DNA of 64,000 bases. It comes from Escherichia phage W22. This document shows positions 1 through 54,957 of the stretch, piece after piece; the stretch's first letter is position 1; each line of letters starts with the position of its first letter. Below the pieces are notes generated by a model, which was not told the DNA's origin, did no database searches, and saw only the letters and a program-made list of their open reading frames with translations. The translations under genes and the position numbers were made by a program. Where the stretch lies: sequence record PV159336. One strand, written 5' to 3'.

Positions 1-1
1 G

Positions 2-112
2 ATCACAGGCTGGGGTTTTGGTGATAAGAAAGAACTTCGTGGTGCTTGGTATTGGTCTGCTCCGCTACAATATTACATTAATGGTAGGTGGATAACAGTA
101 ACCAACGTTTAG
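2..112 (+). CDS. partial CDS (3' end; 5' part lies outside window), product unknown
   Basis: Frame open from window edge to TAG at 110-112 (...RWITVTNV*); RBS of next gene follows directly. Confidence 0.35.
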   Translation: MTGWGFGDKKELRGAWYWSAPLQYYINGRWITVTNV

Positions 113-22409: not shown

Positions 22410-22436
22410 TGTTTTCTCCTCTTTTATTTCAAATAT

Positions 22437-22452
22437 GCGCCCCGAAGGGCGC
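22437..22452 (-). terminator. hairpin terminator downstream of TerD-like gene
   Basis: GCGCCC-CGAA-GGGCGC hairpin followed by AT-rich tract on - strand. Confidence 0.4.
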
Positions 22453-22473
22453 TATGATTTATTACTTGACGTC

Positions 22474-23070
22474 TTACTCGAACCAATCGTCGCCAGCGCC
22501 AAACGCTTTAACTACATCGTAAATGTCAAGCCCAGCTTTACCTACACCATATGCTTTCAGTTTCCATTCGCTATCTTCTCGCACCAGGGAGGCAACGTGG
22601 CAAATGGTGTTACCTGCAAGTTCTGGAGCCAAGAAGTCAAAGTCCAGCAGTTCAACATTACGTTCATCATCGAAGATTTTAAGGAAACCTTCGGTAGCGT
22701 GACCAAGGCGTTTCTTACCCGTTTCGTCATCAATAGTAATTACGAATGCAATTTCCTGTGCTTCAGCAGAGATATTATCCAGTGTAACATCAATCTGCTC
22801 CATCTGTCCTACACCATCACGAACATCTTCACCTGCAAAAGTAGAACGTTCAGGATCAAATTTCTGCGCGTAGCACACCAGGTGACGAGGAGACAACAGT
22901 TCCGGCAGACCAGATGCATTGTGTCGGCAAATCAGAGCACTAACATCCAGATCCAGTTTTTCGTTAGATTTCCAAGAGAATTCCAGACGAATGCGTTTCA
23001 GTGCTGGTGCGATCTTTTTCAGAGAAACTTTTTCGCTAGAACCTTTTTTCAGGGAAATTTTCTGAGTCAT
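22474..23070 (-). CDS. TerD-family protein
   Basis: AAGGAGA RBS; ISLKKGSSEKVSLKK, LDLDVSAL, acidic GEDVRDGVG, EIAFVITIDD and EWKLKAYGVG blocks match TerD pattern. Confidence 0.8.
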   Translation of the reverse strand: MTQKISLKKGSSEKVSLKKIAPALKRIRLEFSWKSNEKLDLDVSALICRHNASGLPELLSPRHLVCYAQKFDPERSTFAGEDVRDGVGQMEQIDVTLDNISAEAQEIAFVITIDDETGKKRLGHATEGFLKIFDDERNVELLDFDFLAPELAGNTICHVASLVREDSEWKLKAYGVGKAGLDIYDVVKAFGAGDDWFE

Positions 23071-23142
23071 AATTTATTATCTCCTTTGTTGTTAATTTAC
23101 GTTGTCTATTTTACTAATCTTTTCTACAAAGTCAAGCGTTTT

Positions 23143-23937
23143 TTACGCTTTTGCTCCGAATTTTTTAACCCACTCACCAAACTCTTCGGATAACAGTTTA
23201 TCGTAAAGTTCTTCATCAGACAAGGACAAATCTGCAATACCGATAAAATCAACATTATCGTACTCTTTTGCCAAGTCTTTCAGGAATTTAAAGTTTGCAT
23301 TACCTACACCAACCATAAACCAGTAAACAGGCGTATTGCGGTGTTTGTTCAGTAAGCTACGTACTGCTGAAGTATCCATGTTTTCCCCGTCAGTTTGGAA
23401 GAAAATCATTGCAGGAGTACGATCAACTTGTGCATCAGTATCTACAACCTGTTCTACAACAGTACGTGTTACTTCTACAAGTTCTTTTTTACCAGTTAGT
23501 TTAGCAAGGAAACCCTTAGCCGGGACTTCTTCATACTCAACGACTTCACGTGTAATATTTTTCATAGGTACACTACCGAAGTATGTATCATAGATCTCTT
23601 GCATTACTGGAGCATAAGCAGTACCACCGTTGATGCAAACATTAGACATGCAAGAGCCGACATAATCATCATACACATCAGCCGTTGCAGGAGGCAGTTC
23701 AAAAGAAGAACTATTGAAAGCCCACATGTCAATCTGTGCATTATCATCAAACTTCATACCAAACGGCAGCAGTTTACCTACAAAATCACTAACAGTGCCA
23801 TCACGATACAGCTCACACATACTACCCGAAATATCTAAGGCGCTACCGACACGAAGAACAACATCGTTAATCTTTTTCTTACGCAGAGATACAGTAAGAG
23901 TTTCTTGACGTTTTTTAAGACTGATTTTATTGGACAT
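23143..23937 (-). CDS. von Willebrand factor A (vWA) domain protein
   Basis: AAAGGAGA RBS; MIDAS-like DISGSM and downstream GGTAY; N-terminus ISLKK...VSLRK resembles TerD N-terminus. Confidence 0.5.
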   Translation of the reverse strand: MSNKISLKKRQETLTVSLRKKKINDVVLRVGSALDISGSMCELYRDGTVSDFVGKLLPFGMKFDDNAQIDMWAFNSSSFELPPATADVYDDYVGSCMSNVCINGGTAYAPVMQEIYDTYFGSVPMKNITREVVEYEEVPAKGFLAKLTGKKELVEVTRTVVEQVVDTDAQVDRTPAMIFFQTDGENMDTSAVRSLLNKHRNTPVYWFMVGVGNANFKFLKDLAKEYDNVDFIGIADLSLSDEELYDKLLSEEFGEWVKKFGAKA

Positions 23938-50387: not shown

Positions 50388-51365
50388 ATGGTAGCACCAA
50401 AATCATGGGAACAATATAAAGAAGAGTGTCAACCAATAGCAGAGAGTAAGCAAATCCAAATCTTAGGATGGACGGGACAATGGAAAGGGGGCCACACAAA
50501 ACTTGATTTGTTGTGCCATTGTGGTTATAAATGGGATACTACAAGTATTAACAGTTTTAAATGTGGTAGCGGTTGTCCACAATGTAAGAGGGAGAAACAA
50601 ACAATGTCCGACGATCAACATATTGCAGGTTTCTTTTCTACAGGGAAATTTAAGGAAGGCACTATCTTCACTAACACAGGAACACGGGGTAAAGGATGTA
50701 GGCATATTACCTGGATGGTTGAATGTCCTGTTTGCTCTCATGATGAATATGTTCAAGCAGGTGTTTGTGATGGTAAATTTTACTCTAAAGGACATCGCCT
50801 TAAACAAGGGTATATTCCGTGTCGTTGTGGGAACTATCAGTATACAGAAGACCAGATCACCTATAGGGTAAAAAAGGAAGTAGAAGGGAAAGGGTATGTC
50901 TGGGTAGATTGGATTACCAAACCCTCTTCTATAGGTAAGTTTAAATATCTTTGTCTTGTGCATGGTGAGCAGATAGGGAGTGCTCGTAATTTATTAAGCC
51001 TCGGTCAAGGTTGTCCACAGTGTGCTGGTCATAATCAACAGCAATTATATATTAATATTGTTAAAGATAATGATATTATAGTTGCTCTTAAGTTTGGTAT
51101 ATCTAAAGATAGTGATAGACGATTAAACGGTCAAAATAGCCGTAATCTGTTTTTTATGGAGCGTATTTGTTTATATGATTTTAGCACAGTGAAACAATGT
51201 AAGGCTGCTGAAAGAGCTATAAAGAAAAAATTAAAAACTGGTATTTTAACGGAAAGAGAGTTGAAAGACGGTTATACAGAAACAGTAAGTGTTTCTGATT
51301 TGGAAAATCTTCAAAAAATTATTACACAATATGGTGGCAAATTAGTATACAGTAAGGAGATGTAA
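50388..51365 (+). CDS. zinc-ribbon-rich protein with C-terminal T5orf172 (GIY-YIG-like) domain
   Basis: AAAGGAG RBS; repeated CxxC modules (CGSGCPQC, CPVCSH, CRCGNYQY, GCPQCAGH); C-terminal LKFGISKDSDRRLNGQNSRN. Confidence 0.4.
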   Translation: MVAPKSWEQYKEECQPIAESKQIQILGWTGQWKGGHTKLDLLCHCGYKWDTTSINSFKCGSGCPQCKREKQTMSDDQHIAGFFSTGKFKEGTIFTNTGTRGKGCRHITWMVECPVCSHDEYVQAGVCDGKFYSKGHRLKQGYIPCRCGNYQYTEDQITYRVKKEVEGKGYVWVDWITKPSSIGKFKYLCLVHGEQIGSARNLLSLGQGCPQCAGHNQQQLYINIVKDNDIIVALKFGISKDSDRRLNGQNSRNLFFMERICLYDFSTVKQCKAAERAIKKKLKTGILTERELKDGYTETVSVSDLENLQKIITQYGGKLVYSKEM

Positions 51366-51917
51366 ATGCGGATTACTGATAAGTATGTGTTCTTCTTCTC
51401 GGCAAAAGATGAATTTAGCAACTGGTATCTATCATCTTTTATTGAACCTTTAGCTCCCAAGTATAATAATTCTATTACAAGTTCTGTTGAATTTACTTGT
51501 GTGGAACAATATATGATGTGGAGAAAAGCATGTTTGTTTTATGATTACAGTATTGCATCTTCTATTTTAACCGGAGATCTAAGATATACAGGAGAAAAAG
51601 AACAAGCATATTATAAACGACTAGGCAGACTAGTTAAAGATTATGATGAAGATACCTGGACTTCTTTACGGGAGAAGATTGTCAAACGTGGTTTGTATCT
51701 TAAATACACACAAAATGAAGATCTCAAAAATAAACTTATAGCCTACGCAGATAAGGAGTTCGTAGAGGCAAGCCCTTATGATTCTATTTATGGTATCAAA
51801 ATGGGGATGTGGGATCGTGATGTGGAAAATAAGGACTGTTGGAAAGGACAAAATCTTTTAGGAAAATGGCATACAGACCTTGCTGTTTATCTAAAAGCAC
51901 AATCTGATATTTCCTGA
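51366..51917 (+). CDS. NADAR-domain protein (YbiA-like N-glycosidase / ADP-ribosyl-processing family)
   Basis: AGGAGA RBS; VFFFSAKDEFSNWY, CVEQYMMWRKACLF, EFVEASPYDSIYGIKMG, GQNLLGKW blocks. Confidence 0.7.
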   Translation: MRITDKYVFFFSAKDEFSNWYLSSFIEPLAPKYNNSITSSVEFTCVEQYMMWRKACLFYDYSIASSILTGDLRYTGEKEQAYYKRLGRLVKDYDEDTWTSLREKIVKRGLYLKYTQNEDLKNKLIAYADKEFVEASPYDSIYGIKMGMWDRDVENKDCWKGQNLLGKWHTDLAVYLKAQSDIS

Positions 51918-52132
51918 TATTTTGAAAATTTTTATTTTTATAAAAAGGGGTGTGGGTTTCATGTACAGAAATTCACCCTCTGCACAGTATATCCAGAGTA
52001 AATATTATTCTGTACTCTGTTAATAAAGTATTTAATTTGTTTGTTGGATTATGGTATCTGATCTTTAAAAGGCATACTATCTCTTAACTACTACTTATAA
52101 CAGAACAGTAAAATCATTTTTATAAAAAGGAC

Positions 52133-52340
52133 AAAATTATTTAAAGTTTTTACAGATTTTTGGGTACAAATTTTGAAAATGAAAAGTTCAAGTTTGGTCA
52201 AAATTATTTAAAGTTTTTGTACGTATTTCTATCCAGATTTTGAAAATGAAAACTTCAATTTTTTAAAAATTCCCCAGTTTATTTAAAGTTTTTTTGCCTT
52301 TTTCCGTAGAAAAATCAAAAATGAAAAGTTCAATTTCGTG
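52133..52340. repeat. three tandem AT-rich direct repeats (about 67-77 bp units)
   Basis: Each unit has ATTTAAAGTTTTT (52139, 52206, 52281) and TGAAAATGAAAA(G/C)TTCAA (52174, 52241, 52316). Confidence 0.7.
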
Positions 52341-52359
52341 TTTTTATGGGTATGCGTAT

Positions 52360-52470
52360 GATAATCATTCTCATTTGTAAATGAGAATCATTATCATTTA
52401 ATTATGTAAATGATAAGCATTCTCACTAAGAGAATGAGAATCATTAGCAAATGAGAATTTTTCTCATTTA
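52360..52470. promoter_or_regulatory. palindromic operator-like array built on TGAGAAT/ATTCTCA
   Basis: Three inverted repeats: 52360-52395 (17-bp arms), 52418-52436, 52449-52469; at least 7 copies of the 7-mer in 110 bp. Confidence 0.6.
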
Positions 52471-52730
52471 CAGAATAACGCGCAGGGGCGGTGTTTGTCT
52501 CGCGCTCCCGTGTCCCCTCGCCATACAATAAGAATAGCATAACCAACAACAAAAGCAAGCGATTATTTTTATCTTTACATTTCTTTACAAATTTATTTTG
52601 GACGAGCTACCGGCGATCAACCTTCCAACCAGTGCCCCCTGGTATGTTAGCCCCGCCTTTACGCCGTGGGGGTGGCGTTTCCTCTTCTGTATGTAAAACA
52701 GTATAAGCCCGATCCCTGGGCTTGTCAAGA

Positions 52731-52997
52731 TTATTTTTTGTTTTCTTGCCAGGATAGGACACCTAACCAAAAATACATGTCGCCCCGCGCCCCTGGCGGG
52801 ATCTTGCTTTCCCCGCCGCCACTGCAAGCCCATAAATAACCATCAGCGAACGGATCAAAGTGATCTATCTCTTCCACCTTATGATCGCCCAGGTTGAGAA
52901 CGGTTTCAACCTTTAAGCCCGTTGCGCTTGCTACCTGGTGCACCGTGCCGCCTTGCCAGCCCAATGAGTGCATGAGATGTAAAGGAGTATTTGTCAT
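52731..52997 (-). CDS. hypothetical protein encoded in GC-rich island
   Basis: 88 aa ORF with AAGGG RBS; local GC content far above surrounding phage DNA. Confidence 0.3.
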   Translation of the reverse strand: MTNTPLHLMHSLGWQGGTVHQVASATGLKVETVLNLGDHKVEEIDHFDPFADGYLWACSGGGESKIPPGARGDMYFWLGVLSWQENKK

Positions 52998-53108
52998 GGT
53001 ATCGCCCTTTCTTTGATGTGCGCCCTGGTTGGCGCGGTAGAAAGATAATAGCCGTTTCCTTTATAGATAGCAAGCAAAAAAGAAATGAAAAAAAGATTAA
53101 AAAAATGG

Positions 53109-53170
53109 TTGACGTTCCTCACCTGGTAGCGTAGTATTCATCTTGTCGAGGGGCGGCAATAGTGCCGCTC
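53109..53170 (+). promoter_or_regulatory. sigma70-like promoter plus 5'-UTR hairpin cassette
   Basis: TTGACG 53109-14, 17 nt, TAGTAT 53132-37; hairpin GCGGCA-ATAG-TGCCGC 53153-68. Confidence 0.6.
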
Positions 53171-53192
53171 ATAACAGAAGAGAGAAATAATC

Positions 53193-53465
53193 ATGGCATC
53201 ATATAGCGCATCAATGATCGTAAAGGGTATCACTGGTAAACCTATGCGCGGTGGCGGATCTTTCGCTAACATCAATATTGATGGACGTTTATCCCTGGAC
53301 GCAGCGATCACAGTGGCACGGGAAACGTTTAAAAAAGAATGTAATTTCAATAAACAAGATTATCTCGGTTTCGCTATTGAAAAAACCGCGCGATTTGTGG
53401 ATTATAAAAGCCCGAAAATGATCGACACTACACTAAAAGCGCAAGATGTAGCGTTTTTGCTTTAA
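53193..53465 (+). CDS. hypothetical early protein
   Basis: 90 aa ORF downstream of promoter-hairpin cassette. Confidence 0.5.
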   Translation: MASYSASMIVKGITGKPMRGGGSFANINIDGRLSLDAAITVARETFKKECNFNKQDYLGFAIEKTARFVDYKSPKMIDTTLKAQDVAFLL

Positions 53466-53468
53466 GTC

Positions 53469-53528
53469 TTGACACTGAAAAATAATTTGGTAATATATAC
53501 TCCATAAGGCGGGAAATGGTTTCCCGCC
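53469..53528 (+). promoter_or_regulatory. sigma70-like promoter plus 5'-UTR hairpin cassette
   Basis: TTGACA 53469-74, TAATAT about 53491-96; hairpin GGCGGGAAA-TGG-TTTCCCGCC 53508-28. Confidence 0.65.
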
Positions 53529-53550
53529 AAAACAAAGAAAGGGTAACACA

Positions 53551-53919: not shown

Positions 53920-53973
53920 TTGACATTGCACTAAAACCTGATAAGCTATCTTAAAGCGGGAATAGTTCCCGCT
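53920..53973 (+). promoter_or_regulatory. promoter-like -35 plus 5'-UTR hairpin cassette
   Basis: TTGACA 53920-25 with weak -10; hairpin AGCGGGAA-TAG-TTCCCGCT 53955-73. Confidence 0.5.
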
Positions 53974-53991
53974 TACATAGGATAAAACTTT

Positions 53992-54140: not shown

Positions 54141-54401
54141 TTGTTTTTTCTAAAAGTTTTTGATAATGTGATCGCTTTTGAACATGCTACAACGTTCGAC
54201 CTGGCGAGATACGCTATCAGGTTTAAAGATAATGTTTATCCCCGTGCTGGCGGCGGTTACACTATTTTTAATCATCGCAACGCGCAACTGACTGATGTAA
54301 CTAATCCAGATCCTGGAGTGTATCGGATAGGCTGGCTACCGTCAAAAGACGCTGCAAGCATGTTTAAGGTATGTAAACTACTAACAGAAGAGGCGAACTA
54401 G
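54141..54401 (+). CDS. hypothetical early protein
   Basis: TTG start with GGGAGG RBS (GTG alternative at 54168); 86 aa. Confidence 0.4.
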   Translation: MFFLKVFDNVIAFEHATTFDLARYAIRFKDNVYPRAGGGYTIFNHRNAQLTDVTNPDPGVYRIGWLPSKDAASMFKVCKLLTEEAN

Positions 54402-54402
54402 C

Positions 54403-54957
54403 ATGGGGCGTGAATATGTGATCCAGTCCTGGGTAAAGCATGACGCAAATGATCCGCGCATAATACCAGATGACATGATCGATCACATGGTAGGGTATAG
54501 CGGGGAGCAGATAGGAAATCGAGCGGCAAAGAGCAACGGCAACACCAGGACGAGATCCGTTCGCCCTGGATGGCTGGCGAATGGTAACGCTGACATTGCA
54601 AGCGCCGCAGATCCAAGCGATGACGCTAAAAATAATCCCTTATACAGCATTGATCCGGCTTTTAAGGTGTTGGAAGAGTATCCCGCTAAATTAGCCGCAC
54701 TAGACAAGGCATACGAAGAAAAGCGCATGGCCTGGACTGTATACAACACCGCTAAAATGGTGCTAGATGCAAAACTAATTAAAGCCCAGGAGAAGATCAA
54801 TAAACTTGTTACCATAGCACAAGAGGAAGACCAGGGCGACCAGGAGGAAGAGGAAGAAATCATGCCTACCTTGGAAGAGGAAGAGATCCAGCCATACATG
54901 CCGACGGAAGAGGAAAAAAGACAAGCCTTAAAAAATTATGAAAATTGCATTGTGTAA
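54403..54957 (+). CDS. hypothetical early protein with acidic C-terminal tail
   Basis: 184 aa; start overlaps upstream stop (TAGCATG); C-terminus EEDQGDQEEEEE. Confidence 0.5.
   Translation: MGREYVIQSWVKHDANDPRIIPDDMIDHMVGYSGEQIGNRAAKSNGNTRTRSVRPGWLANGNADIASAADPSDDAKNNPLYSIDPAFKVLEEYPAKLAALDKAYEEKRMAWTVYNTAKMVLDAKLIKAQEKINKLVTIAQEEDQGDQEEEEEIMPTLEEEEIQPYMPTEEEKRQALKNYENCIV

Follow-up and report, generated by a model that had tools for sequence, protein, structure and literature searches.

A 64-kb stretch of the genome of Escherichia phage W22 (sequence record PV159336; referred to here as the window) contains a short island of high guanine-plus-cytosine (GC) content, and we conclude with high confidence that this island holds a functional structured RNA gene and a real protein gene, and not a moron. 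The phage is a phi92-like virulent myovirus (Justusliebigvirus, Stephanstirmvirinae), and over about 900 bases around the locus it shares 99.6% identity with Escherichia phage EC.P2 and 97% with phi92. A first-pass annotation, made from the letters alone, had read the 88-amino-acid (aa) open reading frame (ORF) in the island as a horizontally acquired moron or, alternatively, the island as a structured non-coding RNA. The RNA does exist, on the minus strand inside the island (Table 1), but the ORF is a protein gene in its own right. It is likely that the two belong to an old, conserved, leftward-transcribed module that is wedged between two rightward gene blocks.

The RNA, called RNA A here, is about 100 nucleotides (nt) long and is numbered such that nucleotide n equals 52695 minus the window coordinate, with a predicted start at about 52694. 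In the structure model a leader precedes helix P1, the loop of P1 pairs with a downstream run of G to give an H-type pseudoknot, the G-run is bulged from a longer helix that includes P2 and P3, and an invariant tail, which is probably single-stranded, follows. Across 51 distinct sequences, standard pairs occupy 83% of the cells, compared with 25-46% when the partners are slid by 1-3 columns, and both partners have changed in 11 of the 21 pairs. Covariation scores 0.180, whereas shuffles give 0.085 (standard deviation (sd) 0.006) and none of 500 reached the observed value. Most of this signal is carried by P2/P3, in which one pair is A-U in 37 sequences and G-C in 14. The pseudoknot taken alone scores 0.158 versus 0.037 when shuffled (0 of 500), and one of its positions is C-G in 37 sequences and A-U in 10, with a single break; by eye, its partners read CCCC:GGGG, CCAA:UUGG, CCAG:CUGG or CCAU:AUGG according to clade. 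Base pairs are held by compensatory changes above the controls, as in a structured RNA gene. G-U cells outnumber A-C cells (54 versus 19), which favours the modelled minus strand as the RNA strand. As a separate observation, the length of the G-run in the P3 loop (52632-52639) varies among near-identical phages (GGGGCA, GGGGGCA or GGGGGGGCA), which suggests slippage in a loop that tolerates it.

A near-consensus sigma-70 promoter predicted for the RNA, the best regional match, begins two bases past the stop codon of the protein gene. Its spacer is a GC hairpin (52705-52723, minus strand), and the scan also calls the same bases terminator-like, for the protein gene. Of 42 distinct upstream regions, 39 have a promoter that matches at 9 or more of 12 positions and whose distance from the reference point is nearly constant (11-14 nt). 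In other clades the hairpin within the spacer has another sequence and still pairs, for example GCCCGGCGAAAGCTGGGC and CGCCCCAGGGAATGGGG.

When distant loci are aligned, they resemble one another more closely in the DNA past the stop codon than in the C-terminal half of the protein. With 271 nt of the non-coding DNA as query, blastn found 245 phage records, versus 151 with a homologue of the protein (tblastn), and several of the phages that carry the RNA are without the protein gene. Over a core of about 125 nt, phages of Cronobacter (CR3, CR8, CR9), Klebsiella, Pectobacterium and Enterobacter show 84-85% identity, and pieces of this core can be recognized in Erwinia and Aeromonas phages. Pattern scans that covered viral, genome and metagenome collections, together with the covariance model, gave 65 copies in all (the window plus 64 other loci; 51 distinct), one per locus; with filters off, the copy in the window is the only one (next best hit, 12 bits). 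The homologues from Aeromonas phages (Plateaulakevirus) are informative for their simplicity: the RNA stands alone in an intergenic gap of about 285 nt behind its own TTGCTT-17-TATAAT promoter, a clear GC hairpin followed by a U-run lies 40-80 nt past the core, and there is no gp224 homologue, Fur-like site or repeat near the RNA. Three copies of the RNA (L013, L014 and L066; Aeromonas phages 4L372XY and 4L372D) carry an insertion of about 47 nt in the linker from P1 to the pseudoknot strand that the related L036 and L053 are without.

Among 185,579 genomes of bacteria and archaea, the pattern scan gave 12 matches, about the number expected by chance, of which the covariance model recognized one true copy (L079, 95.6 bits) and one borderline copy (L080, 22 bits). 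The contig with the true copy, 4 kb long and part of a metagenome bin, bears a gp224 homologue as well, and the copy is thus probably phage DNA. A 'tRNA-Ile' that is annotated under one hit of the searches is a genuine tRNA; it lies on the opposite strand and only adjoins the match.

The ORF was found exactly where the first-pass annotation had placed it. Its product is 95% identical to phi92 gp224, a protein annotated as 'hypothetical protein' that has the same length and position and is therefore the orthologue, and it matches PHROG 19316 over its full length (E = 3e-58). A word-indexed search gave 21 homologous clusters, with lengths of 87-93 aa down to about 45% identity; those among them that have names belong to phages or lie on contigs of phage size. 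Homologues with as little as 40-50% identity retain the length and the N-terminus (the annotated homologue of phiTE is longer, at 143 aa), and a profile search extended the family to 209 clusters (clustering at 50% identity, E up to 0.001). Leucine-rich-repeat proteins among the distant profile matches are probably spurious, matching the leucine-rich N-terminus. For one distant homologue the available context amounted to an 834-bp contig. In nepoznato (Phapecoctavirus), Av-05 (Avunavirus), phiTE (Certrevirus), LTH01, a Klebsiella phage and a Shigella phage, the homologue is a lone opposite-strand gene between two co-directional blocks, with some 800 bp of gene-free DNA after it in every case, and the same position and orientation recur across Stephanstirmvirinae and Vequintavirinae. 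The promoter-like arrangement upstream of the gene, TTGCT..-TAT.AT, and a near-identical hairpin leader are also present at loci L004, L006 and L009.

The pattern of substitution indicates that the ORF is under purifying selection. Over the N-terminal 31 codons of 20 distinct genes, the mean difference is 0.59 per synonymous site versus 0.17 per non-synonymous site, and the full-length ratio of non-synonymous to synonymous change (dN/dS) among type-1 genes is 0.10-0.27, with synonymous sites saturated. Conservation is seen in the N-terminal ~40 residues (LHLMHSLGWQGGTVHQVASATGLKVETILNL), whereas the C-terminal half varies; behind the conserved domain, three or more C-terminal halves unrelated to one another occur (...GYLWACSGGGESKIPP..., ...HGLKAVKMCVVDICGAAY... 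and ...NTPRRQGRIDADEKCVKAVY...). The AlphaFold model consists of five helices and is all-helical, with a predicted local distance difference test score (pLDDT) of 94 and a predicted template modelling score (pTM) of 0.87. Sequence searches of Pfam, NCBIfam and PDB gave no family match, Foldseek found nothing in PDB for the model, and BFVD returned only the protein's own family; the helix-turn-helix look of the conserved segment is only a lead. In several clades another small ORF (about 60 aa, ending ...ENGEVIADSWE or ...NGEVIADTLKY) directly precedes the RNA promoter on the same strand as the RNA, either alongside gp224 or in its place (L010, 1269-1454; L007, 1754-1930; also upstream of the RNA in L043, L049 and L067).

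Sliding-window composition bears out the island itself: no other 500-bp segment of the window has a GC content as high (52471-52970, 50.4%, about 3.9 sd above the mean of 37.8%; 500-bp windows, mean 0.378, sd 0.032). The 200-bp maximum is at 52781 (0.57), and the segment 52781-52840, previously put at about 60% GC, measures 66.7%, so that the earlier figure was conservative. The island also has the flanks ascribed to it, an operator-like array of palindromes on the left (52354-52470) and an early plus-strand promoter on the right. It is the top peak of the window but not a unique one: a runner-up of 0.496 lies 1.7 kb rightward in an early gene (54241-54740). This second peak falls inside a 184-aa early ORF (54403-54957; GC content at third codon positions (GC3) 0.51) with an acidic, glutamate-rich C-terminus. 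The island is composite, with 66% GC at 52471-52520, 24% at 52521-52599, 56% at 52600-52730 and 50.6% in the ORF. In six distant relatives GC likewise peaks across the homologous gene and the next 300 nt or so, and then falls to a trough of 20-30%; the peak is thus a conserved property of the locus and not an oddity of one genome.

Third-position composition deviates as well. The GC3 of the gp224 gene is 0.545, compared with 0.303 for 50 ORFs of the window (sd 0.075; z = 3.2), and resembles that of Escherichia coli (about 0.55). The sole ORF with a higher value (22435-23193, plus strand; GC content at first codon positions (GC1) 0.38, GC3 0.57) lies on the strand opposite to its neighbours, and we take it, from its GC profile and orientation, to be a spurious antisense frame. 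GC3 is also raised in the early genes rightward of the island (0.36-0.51), and we infer that the genes expressed first, before phage tRNAs act, may be selected towards host-like codons. The high GC has two sources, the G+C-rich helices of the RNA together with the hairpins, and the E. coli-like third-position composition of the protein gene; recent import is unnecessary to explain it.

Table 1. Predicted elements of the island and its flanks, listed from right to left in the window; nt, nucleotide of RNA A.
Feature	Position	Strand	Basis or remark
Early sigma-70-like promoter TTGACG-17-TAGTAT	53109-53137	+	Consensus match; right flank of island
Promoter-like site TTGCTA-17-TATTAT (protein gene)	53045-53073	-	Consensus scan, 9/12; divergent from plus-strand promoter
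GC-rich hairpin in 5' leader, GCGCCAACCAGGGCGC	53020-53035	-	Read from sequence
88-aa protein gene, phi92 gp224 homologue (PHROG 19316)	52731-52997	-	ORF and homology
Sigma-70 promoter TTGACA-17-TATACT (small RNA)	52700-52728	-	Best regional match, 11/12
Structured small RNA (RNA A), ~100 nt	52593-52697	-	Covariance model R1, 108 bits, E = 1e-35
RNA leader, purine-rich	nt 1-16	-	Structure model
P1, nt 17-21 with 30-34	52678-52674 with 52665-52661	-	
H-type pseudoknot, P1 loop nt 25-28 with G-run nt 41-44	52670-52667 with 52654-52651	-	
Longer helix from which G-run is bulged	nt 39-40:74-75, 45-46:72-73, P2 48-51:67-70, P3 53-56:63-66		
P2/P3 hairpin	52647-52639 with 52632-52625	-	
Invariant 18-nt tail AAGGUnnAUCGCCGGnAG, nt 71-88	52624-52607	-	
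Two direct copies of TGTAAAGA (TTTGTAAAGAAATGTAAAGA)	52572-52589	-	Just past RNA core; in nearly all enterobacterial-phage homologues
Second promoter-like site TTGCTT-16-TATTCT	52531-52558	-	Read from sequence; below scan threshold
Element B, GC-rich imperfect hairpin, conserved loop GAGACAAACACC	52475-52523	-	At predicted start of second transcript; abuts first Fur-box-like site
Four adjacent Fur-box-like sites (four to five palindromes, 52354-52470)	52354-72, 52377-95, 52406-24, 52430-48		15-16/19 versus E. coli Fur consensus
Three ~70-bp iterons (direct repeats, 67-75 bp spacing), each with TTATTTAAAGTTTTT and GAAAATGAAAAGTTCAA	52116-52336		

Downstream of the RNA the minus strand runs into a region that is without ORFs on that strand in the window and that looks like a replication origin: it is poor in GC (25% over 51918-52470) and contains tandem direct repeats. 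At the second promoter-like site, homologues keep the TTG of the -35 element and the TAnnnT of the -10 element while the spacer varies (for example TTGCAA-17-TATATT and TTGACC-17-GATAAT). The outer stem of element B is paired in 91% of cells, against 24-60% with slid partners, and has one compensatory pair; RNAalifold gives no consensus and fold z-scores are -0.5 to -1.3, so that the hairpin is weakly supported. Element B followed by UUAUUCUGU is the only terminator candidate for the RNA in the window and is uncalled by the terminator scan. Matches to the Fur consensus with up to five mismatches on either strand number 10 in 553 bp, versus 0.15 expected. Phages of Escherichia, Klebsiella, Pectobacterium, Cronobacter and Erwinia share the Fur-like motif AAATGAGAATGATTATCATT, whereas the neighbouring iterons change by clade; relatives have three-copy arrays at the same place with very different sequence, for example ...AAAAATTTTTT...CGATCGAGAACC. 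Because the one is kept across genera and the other differs by clade, the sequences suggest that a host factor may act on the Fur-like sites and a phage factor on the iterons. An array of Fur sites is unusual in a virulent phage.

On the minus strand the proposed module reads, in order: a promoter and hairpin leader, the gp224 gene, its terminator hairpin nested in the spacer of a sigma-70 promoter, the RNA of about 100 nt, and a second promoter and GC hairpin that lead into the Fur-like sites and iterons. Host RNA polymerase would make the RNA at the start of infection, and the RNA may act in trans through its tail, with the compact pseudoknotted body stabilizing the molecule and presenting the invariant tail to a conserved partner, which could be a protein or an RNA, of the host or of the phage. 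We put forward a trans-acting early small RNA only tentatively, as a proposal drawn from sequence comparison. It leans on the Aeromonas homologues, in which the core occurs with its own promoter and a canonical terminator and has no gp224, Fur-like sites or repeats beside it, and on these grounds we favour it over an origin primer. Several points weigh against the explanation as a whole. Searches for a target came up empty in the window, in E. coli genomes and in E. coli rRNA. The promoter, start site and 3' end of the RNA are all predicted, the transcript being deduced from a conserved sigma-70 promoter. A 236-nt stretch of the minus strand folds like its shuffles (z = 0.11), so that support for the structure comes from covariation and not from energy, and P1 is nearly invariant, which means that covariation hardly tests it. 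RNAalifold proposes an alternative long-range pairing of CGGCG, in the 3' strand of P1, with CGCCG in the tail, in columns that are all invariant. The deviant GC3 of the gp224 gene is accounted for only by presumed codon selection. Finally, the RNA of enterobacterial phages always points at the Fur-box and iteron region, as would fit a role in cis at an origin.

That role in cis is the alternative to which we give most weight, although we consider it rather unlikely. The RNA and the second transcript would be parts of an origin, priming leading-strand synthesis or activating the origin, and the structure of the RNA would control the formation or processing of the hybrid. All enterobacterial homologues have two tandem promoters that face the AT-rich region with its three iterons and palindrome array, no ORF follows on the minus strand, and the iterons are clade-specific within a constant architecture, as expected of repeats that are specific to an initiator. 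Against this, in the Aeromonas phages a short intergenic gap free of repeats holds the RNA core with its promoter and terminator, the most conserved part is a short tail and not a long stretch that could hybridize to DNA, and no origin has been mapped in any relative. An elaboration, in which the RNA, second transcript, Fur-site array and iterons form an origin primed or licensed by transcription and gated by the iron status of the host, or in which the Fur sites titrate Fur during replication, seems doubtful; for virulent phages we found no description of an RNA with such a fold or of an origin gated by Fur. On this reading RNA A, working together with the elements it points at, would found a new class of regulatory RNAs in phages. 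It is improbable that the RNA is a riboswitch-like element that senses a ligand or signal and decides on transcription into the Fur-box and iteron region. As in small riboswitch aptamers, the H-type pseudoknot is compact, its third loop is rich in A and many of the unpaired nucleotides are invariant, and the tail could pair with the 3' strand of P1 in a mutually exclusive manner; however, that pairing is invariant and so offers no test by covariation, no conserved ORF follows on the minus strand as it would behind a 5' leader, Rfam has no riboswitch match, and the Aeromonas homologues end in a terminator with nothing there to regulate.

A moron, that is, a self-contained gene from a donor of higher GC that is kept for its benefit to phage or host, would account for the promoter-like site (53073-53045) and the hairpin followed by a T-run (52723-52705) that bracket the ORF, although both are consensus matches only, as well as for its strand, opposite to that of the neighbouring genes, and its deviant GC3. 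The gene is also missing from many relatives that bear the RNA (Cronobacter, Erwinia and Aeromonas phages), and three or more unrelated forms of its C-terminal half exist. Yet the position and orientation are identical in two subfamilies and synonymous sites among homologues are saturated, from which we conclude that the gene has long been resident at the locus. The named homologues point to phages, and the raised GC3 of the early genes to the right makes composition look like a feature of the early region and not of a single import. The gene occupies the same site in 151 records rather than being inserted sporadically, and the insertion or deletion that does distinguish close relatives is another cassette, right of 53157. 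With purifying selection in both subfamilies added to this, the moron claim does not survive, and we regard it as very improbable. The least probable reading is that the conserved GC-rich blocks act as DNA, for example as a pac signal or as sites for replication or partition proteins. Several relatives' records begin or end within 1-2 kb, that of LTH01 ends inside the RNA gene, and the tail contains the palindromes GATC and CCGG; but record starts are usually arbitrary, and selection on double-stranded DNA does not predict compensatory changes that keep helices including a pseudoknot, nor the favouring of G-U pairs on one strand, and the promoter stands at a fixed distance.

We compared the RNA with known families and possible partners. 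A cmscan of 51800-53300 against Rfam 15 with permissive filters (E up to 1) gave only two chance microRNA matches in palindromes, four homologous loci gave nothing at the RNA (E up to 0.1), and ARAGORN found no tRNA or transfer-messenger RNA in the window. The RNA is not coding: a 51-aa frame through it is broken, and its loops vary by 1-2 nt among close relatives, not by multiples of three. A likeness of the P2/P3 hairpin with its tail to 16S helix 45 and to 4.5S RNA was discarded, as it breaks down in other clades. Allowing up to three mismatches, the window has no second copy or complement of the RNA, and 5,426 complete E. coli genomes have no homologue or complement of the RNA segment, which alone, without the ORF, was the query. 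The complementarity of the tail to E. coli 16S, 23S and 5S rRNA and tRNA-Glu is no better than that of shuffled tails; the best rRNA match, 9 nt at 23S 104-112, is equalled by 11% of shuffles.

The neighbourhood of the island has features of its own. Early units on the plus strand at 53109-53195, 53469-53550 and 53921-53991 are alike in having a near-consensus sigma-70 promoter, a short GC hairpin and an A/G-rich ribosome-binding stretch, and the leader ACAGAAGAGAGAAA at 53174-53187 is similar to the 5' leader of the small RNA, ACAGAAGAGGAAAC. Many close relatives have an extra promoter-plus-small-gene cassette at 53157-53158 (about 255 bp in L002 (alia); about 560 bp including gp225 in L001 (phi92)); as the window is without it, most blast matches split into two pieces. 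The two genes before the non-coding region (50388-51917, plus strand) encode a 325-aa protein with CapR homology and T5orf172, and a 183-aa NADAR-domain protein (E = 3.5e-36). Records labelled as Campylobacter phage (five) and as Pseudomonas, Acinetobacter and Serratia phage (one each) are 93-97% identical over the region, which suggests mislabelled hosts or contamination in those records.

The group to which W22 belongs is widely isolated, and several members have been studied for therapy or biocontrol, including phi92, rV5, PVP-SE1, CR3, phiTE and many Klebsiella, Salmonella and Cronobacter phages, yet their large 'non-coding' region has so far been drawn as an empty box. The genome paper of rV5 addresses the origin by skew analysis only and draws a box labelled 'non-coding', which is presumably the equivalent region. 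Searchable literature, queried with exact sequence strings among others, yielded no description of the RNA. With 84-85% identity where neighbouring proteins have about 50%, it is among the most constrained elements of these genomes, and such constraint on an element that occurs once per genome from Escherichia to Aeromonas phages implies an important role early in infection. For RNA biology the locus offers a new compact pseudoknot fold with an invariant tail that is directly testable, and a well-supported structured phage RNA that is absent from Rfam 15; for phage biology it offers a handle on an unmapped origin or regulatory region; and for annotation, a reason not to take the GC island for imported DNA.

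Among known structures, the closest in design are the preQ1-I, SAM-II and fluoride riboswitch aptamers and the ToxI pseudoknot, which likewise are compact, have a hairpin loop that pairs downstream across an A-rich linker, and contain many invariant unpaired bases. RNA A differs from these in being without an Rfam match, in lying outside a 5' untranslated region and in not being a tandem repeat as ToxI is. The published ToxI repeat is not visible in the corresponding region of phiTE, and the pseudo-ToxI RNA of that phage is presumably a different locus. The predicted Fur-like sites match the consensus of Enterobacterales Fur boxes (GATAATGATAATCATTATC) at 15-16 of 19 positions, but usual Fur boxes lie over promoters, whereas these lie downstream of them and inside the genome of a virulent phage. 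Transcription-dependent origins include the T7 primary origin (two tandem promoters, AT-rich), the R-loop origins oriF and oriG of T4, and ColE1 with its RNA II; transcription also activates origins in lambda and T7. The locus shares with these two tandem promoters that face an AT-rich, repeat-containing region, and differs in that its origin is unmapped and its RNA core is kept in Aeromonas phages away from repeats. Phage small RNAs with their own promoter include lambda OOP, P22 sar, P1/P7 c4 and the T4 stable RNAs C and D, and RNA A would be like them a short non-coding transcript with a host-type promoter and a stem-loop body. OOP, sar and c4 regulate neighbouring phage genes as antisense RNAs; RNA A, in contrast, is without a complementary partner in the 64 kb and folds as a pseudoknot, and it appears to represent an undescribed family, a phage small RNA in a new form.

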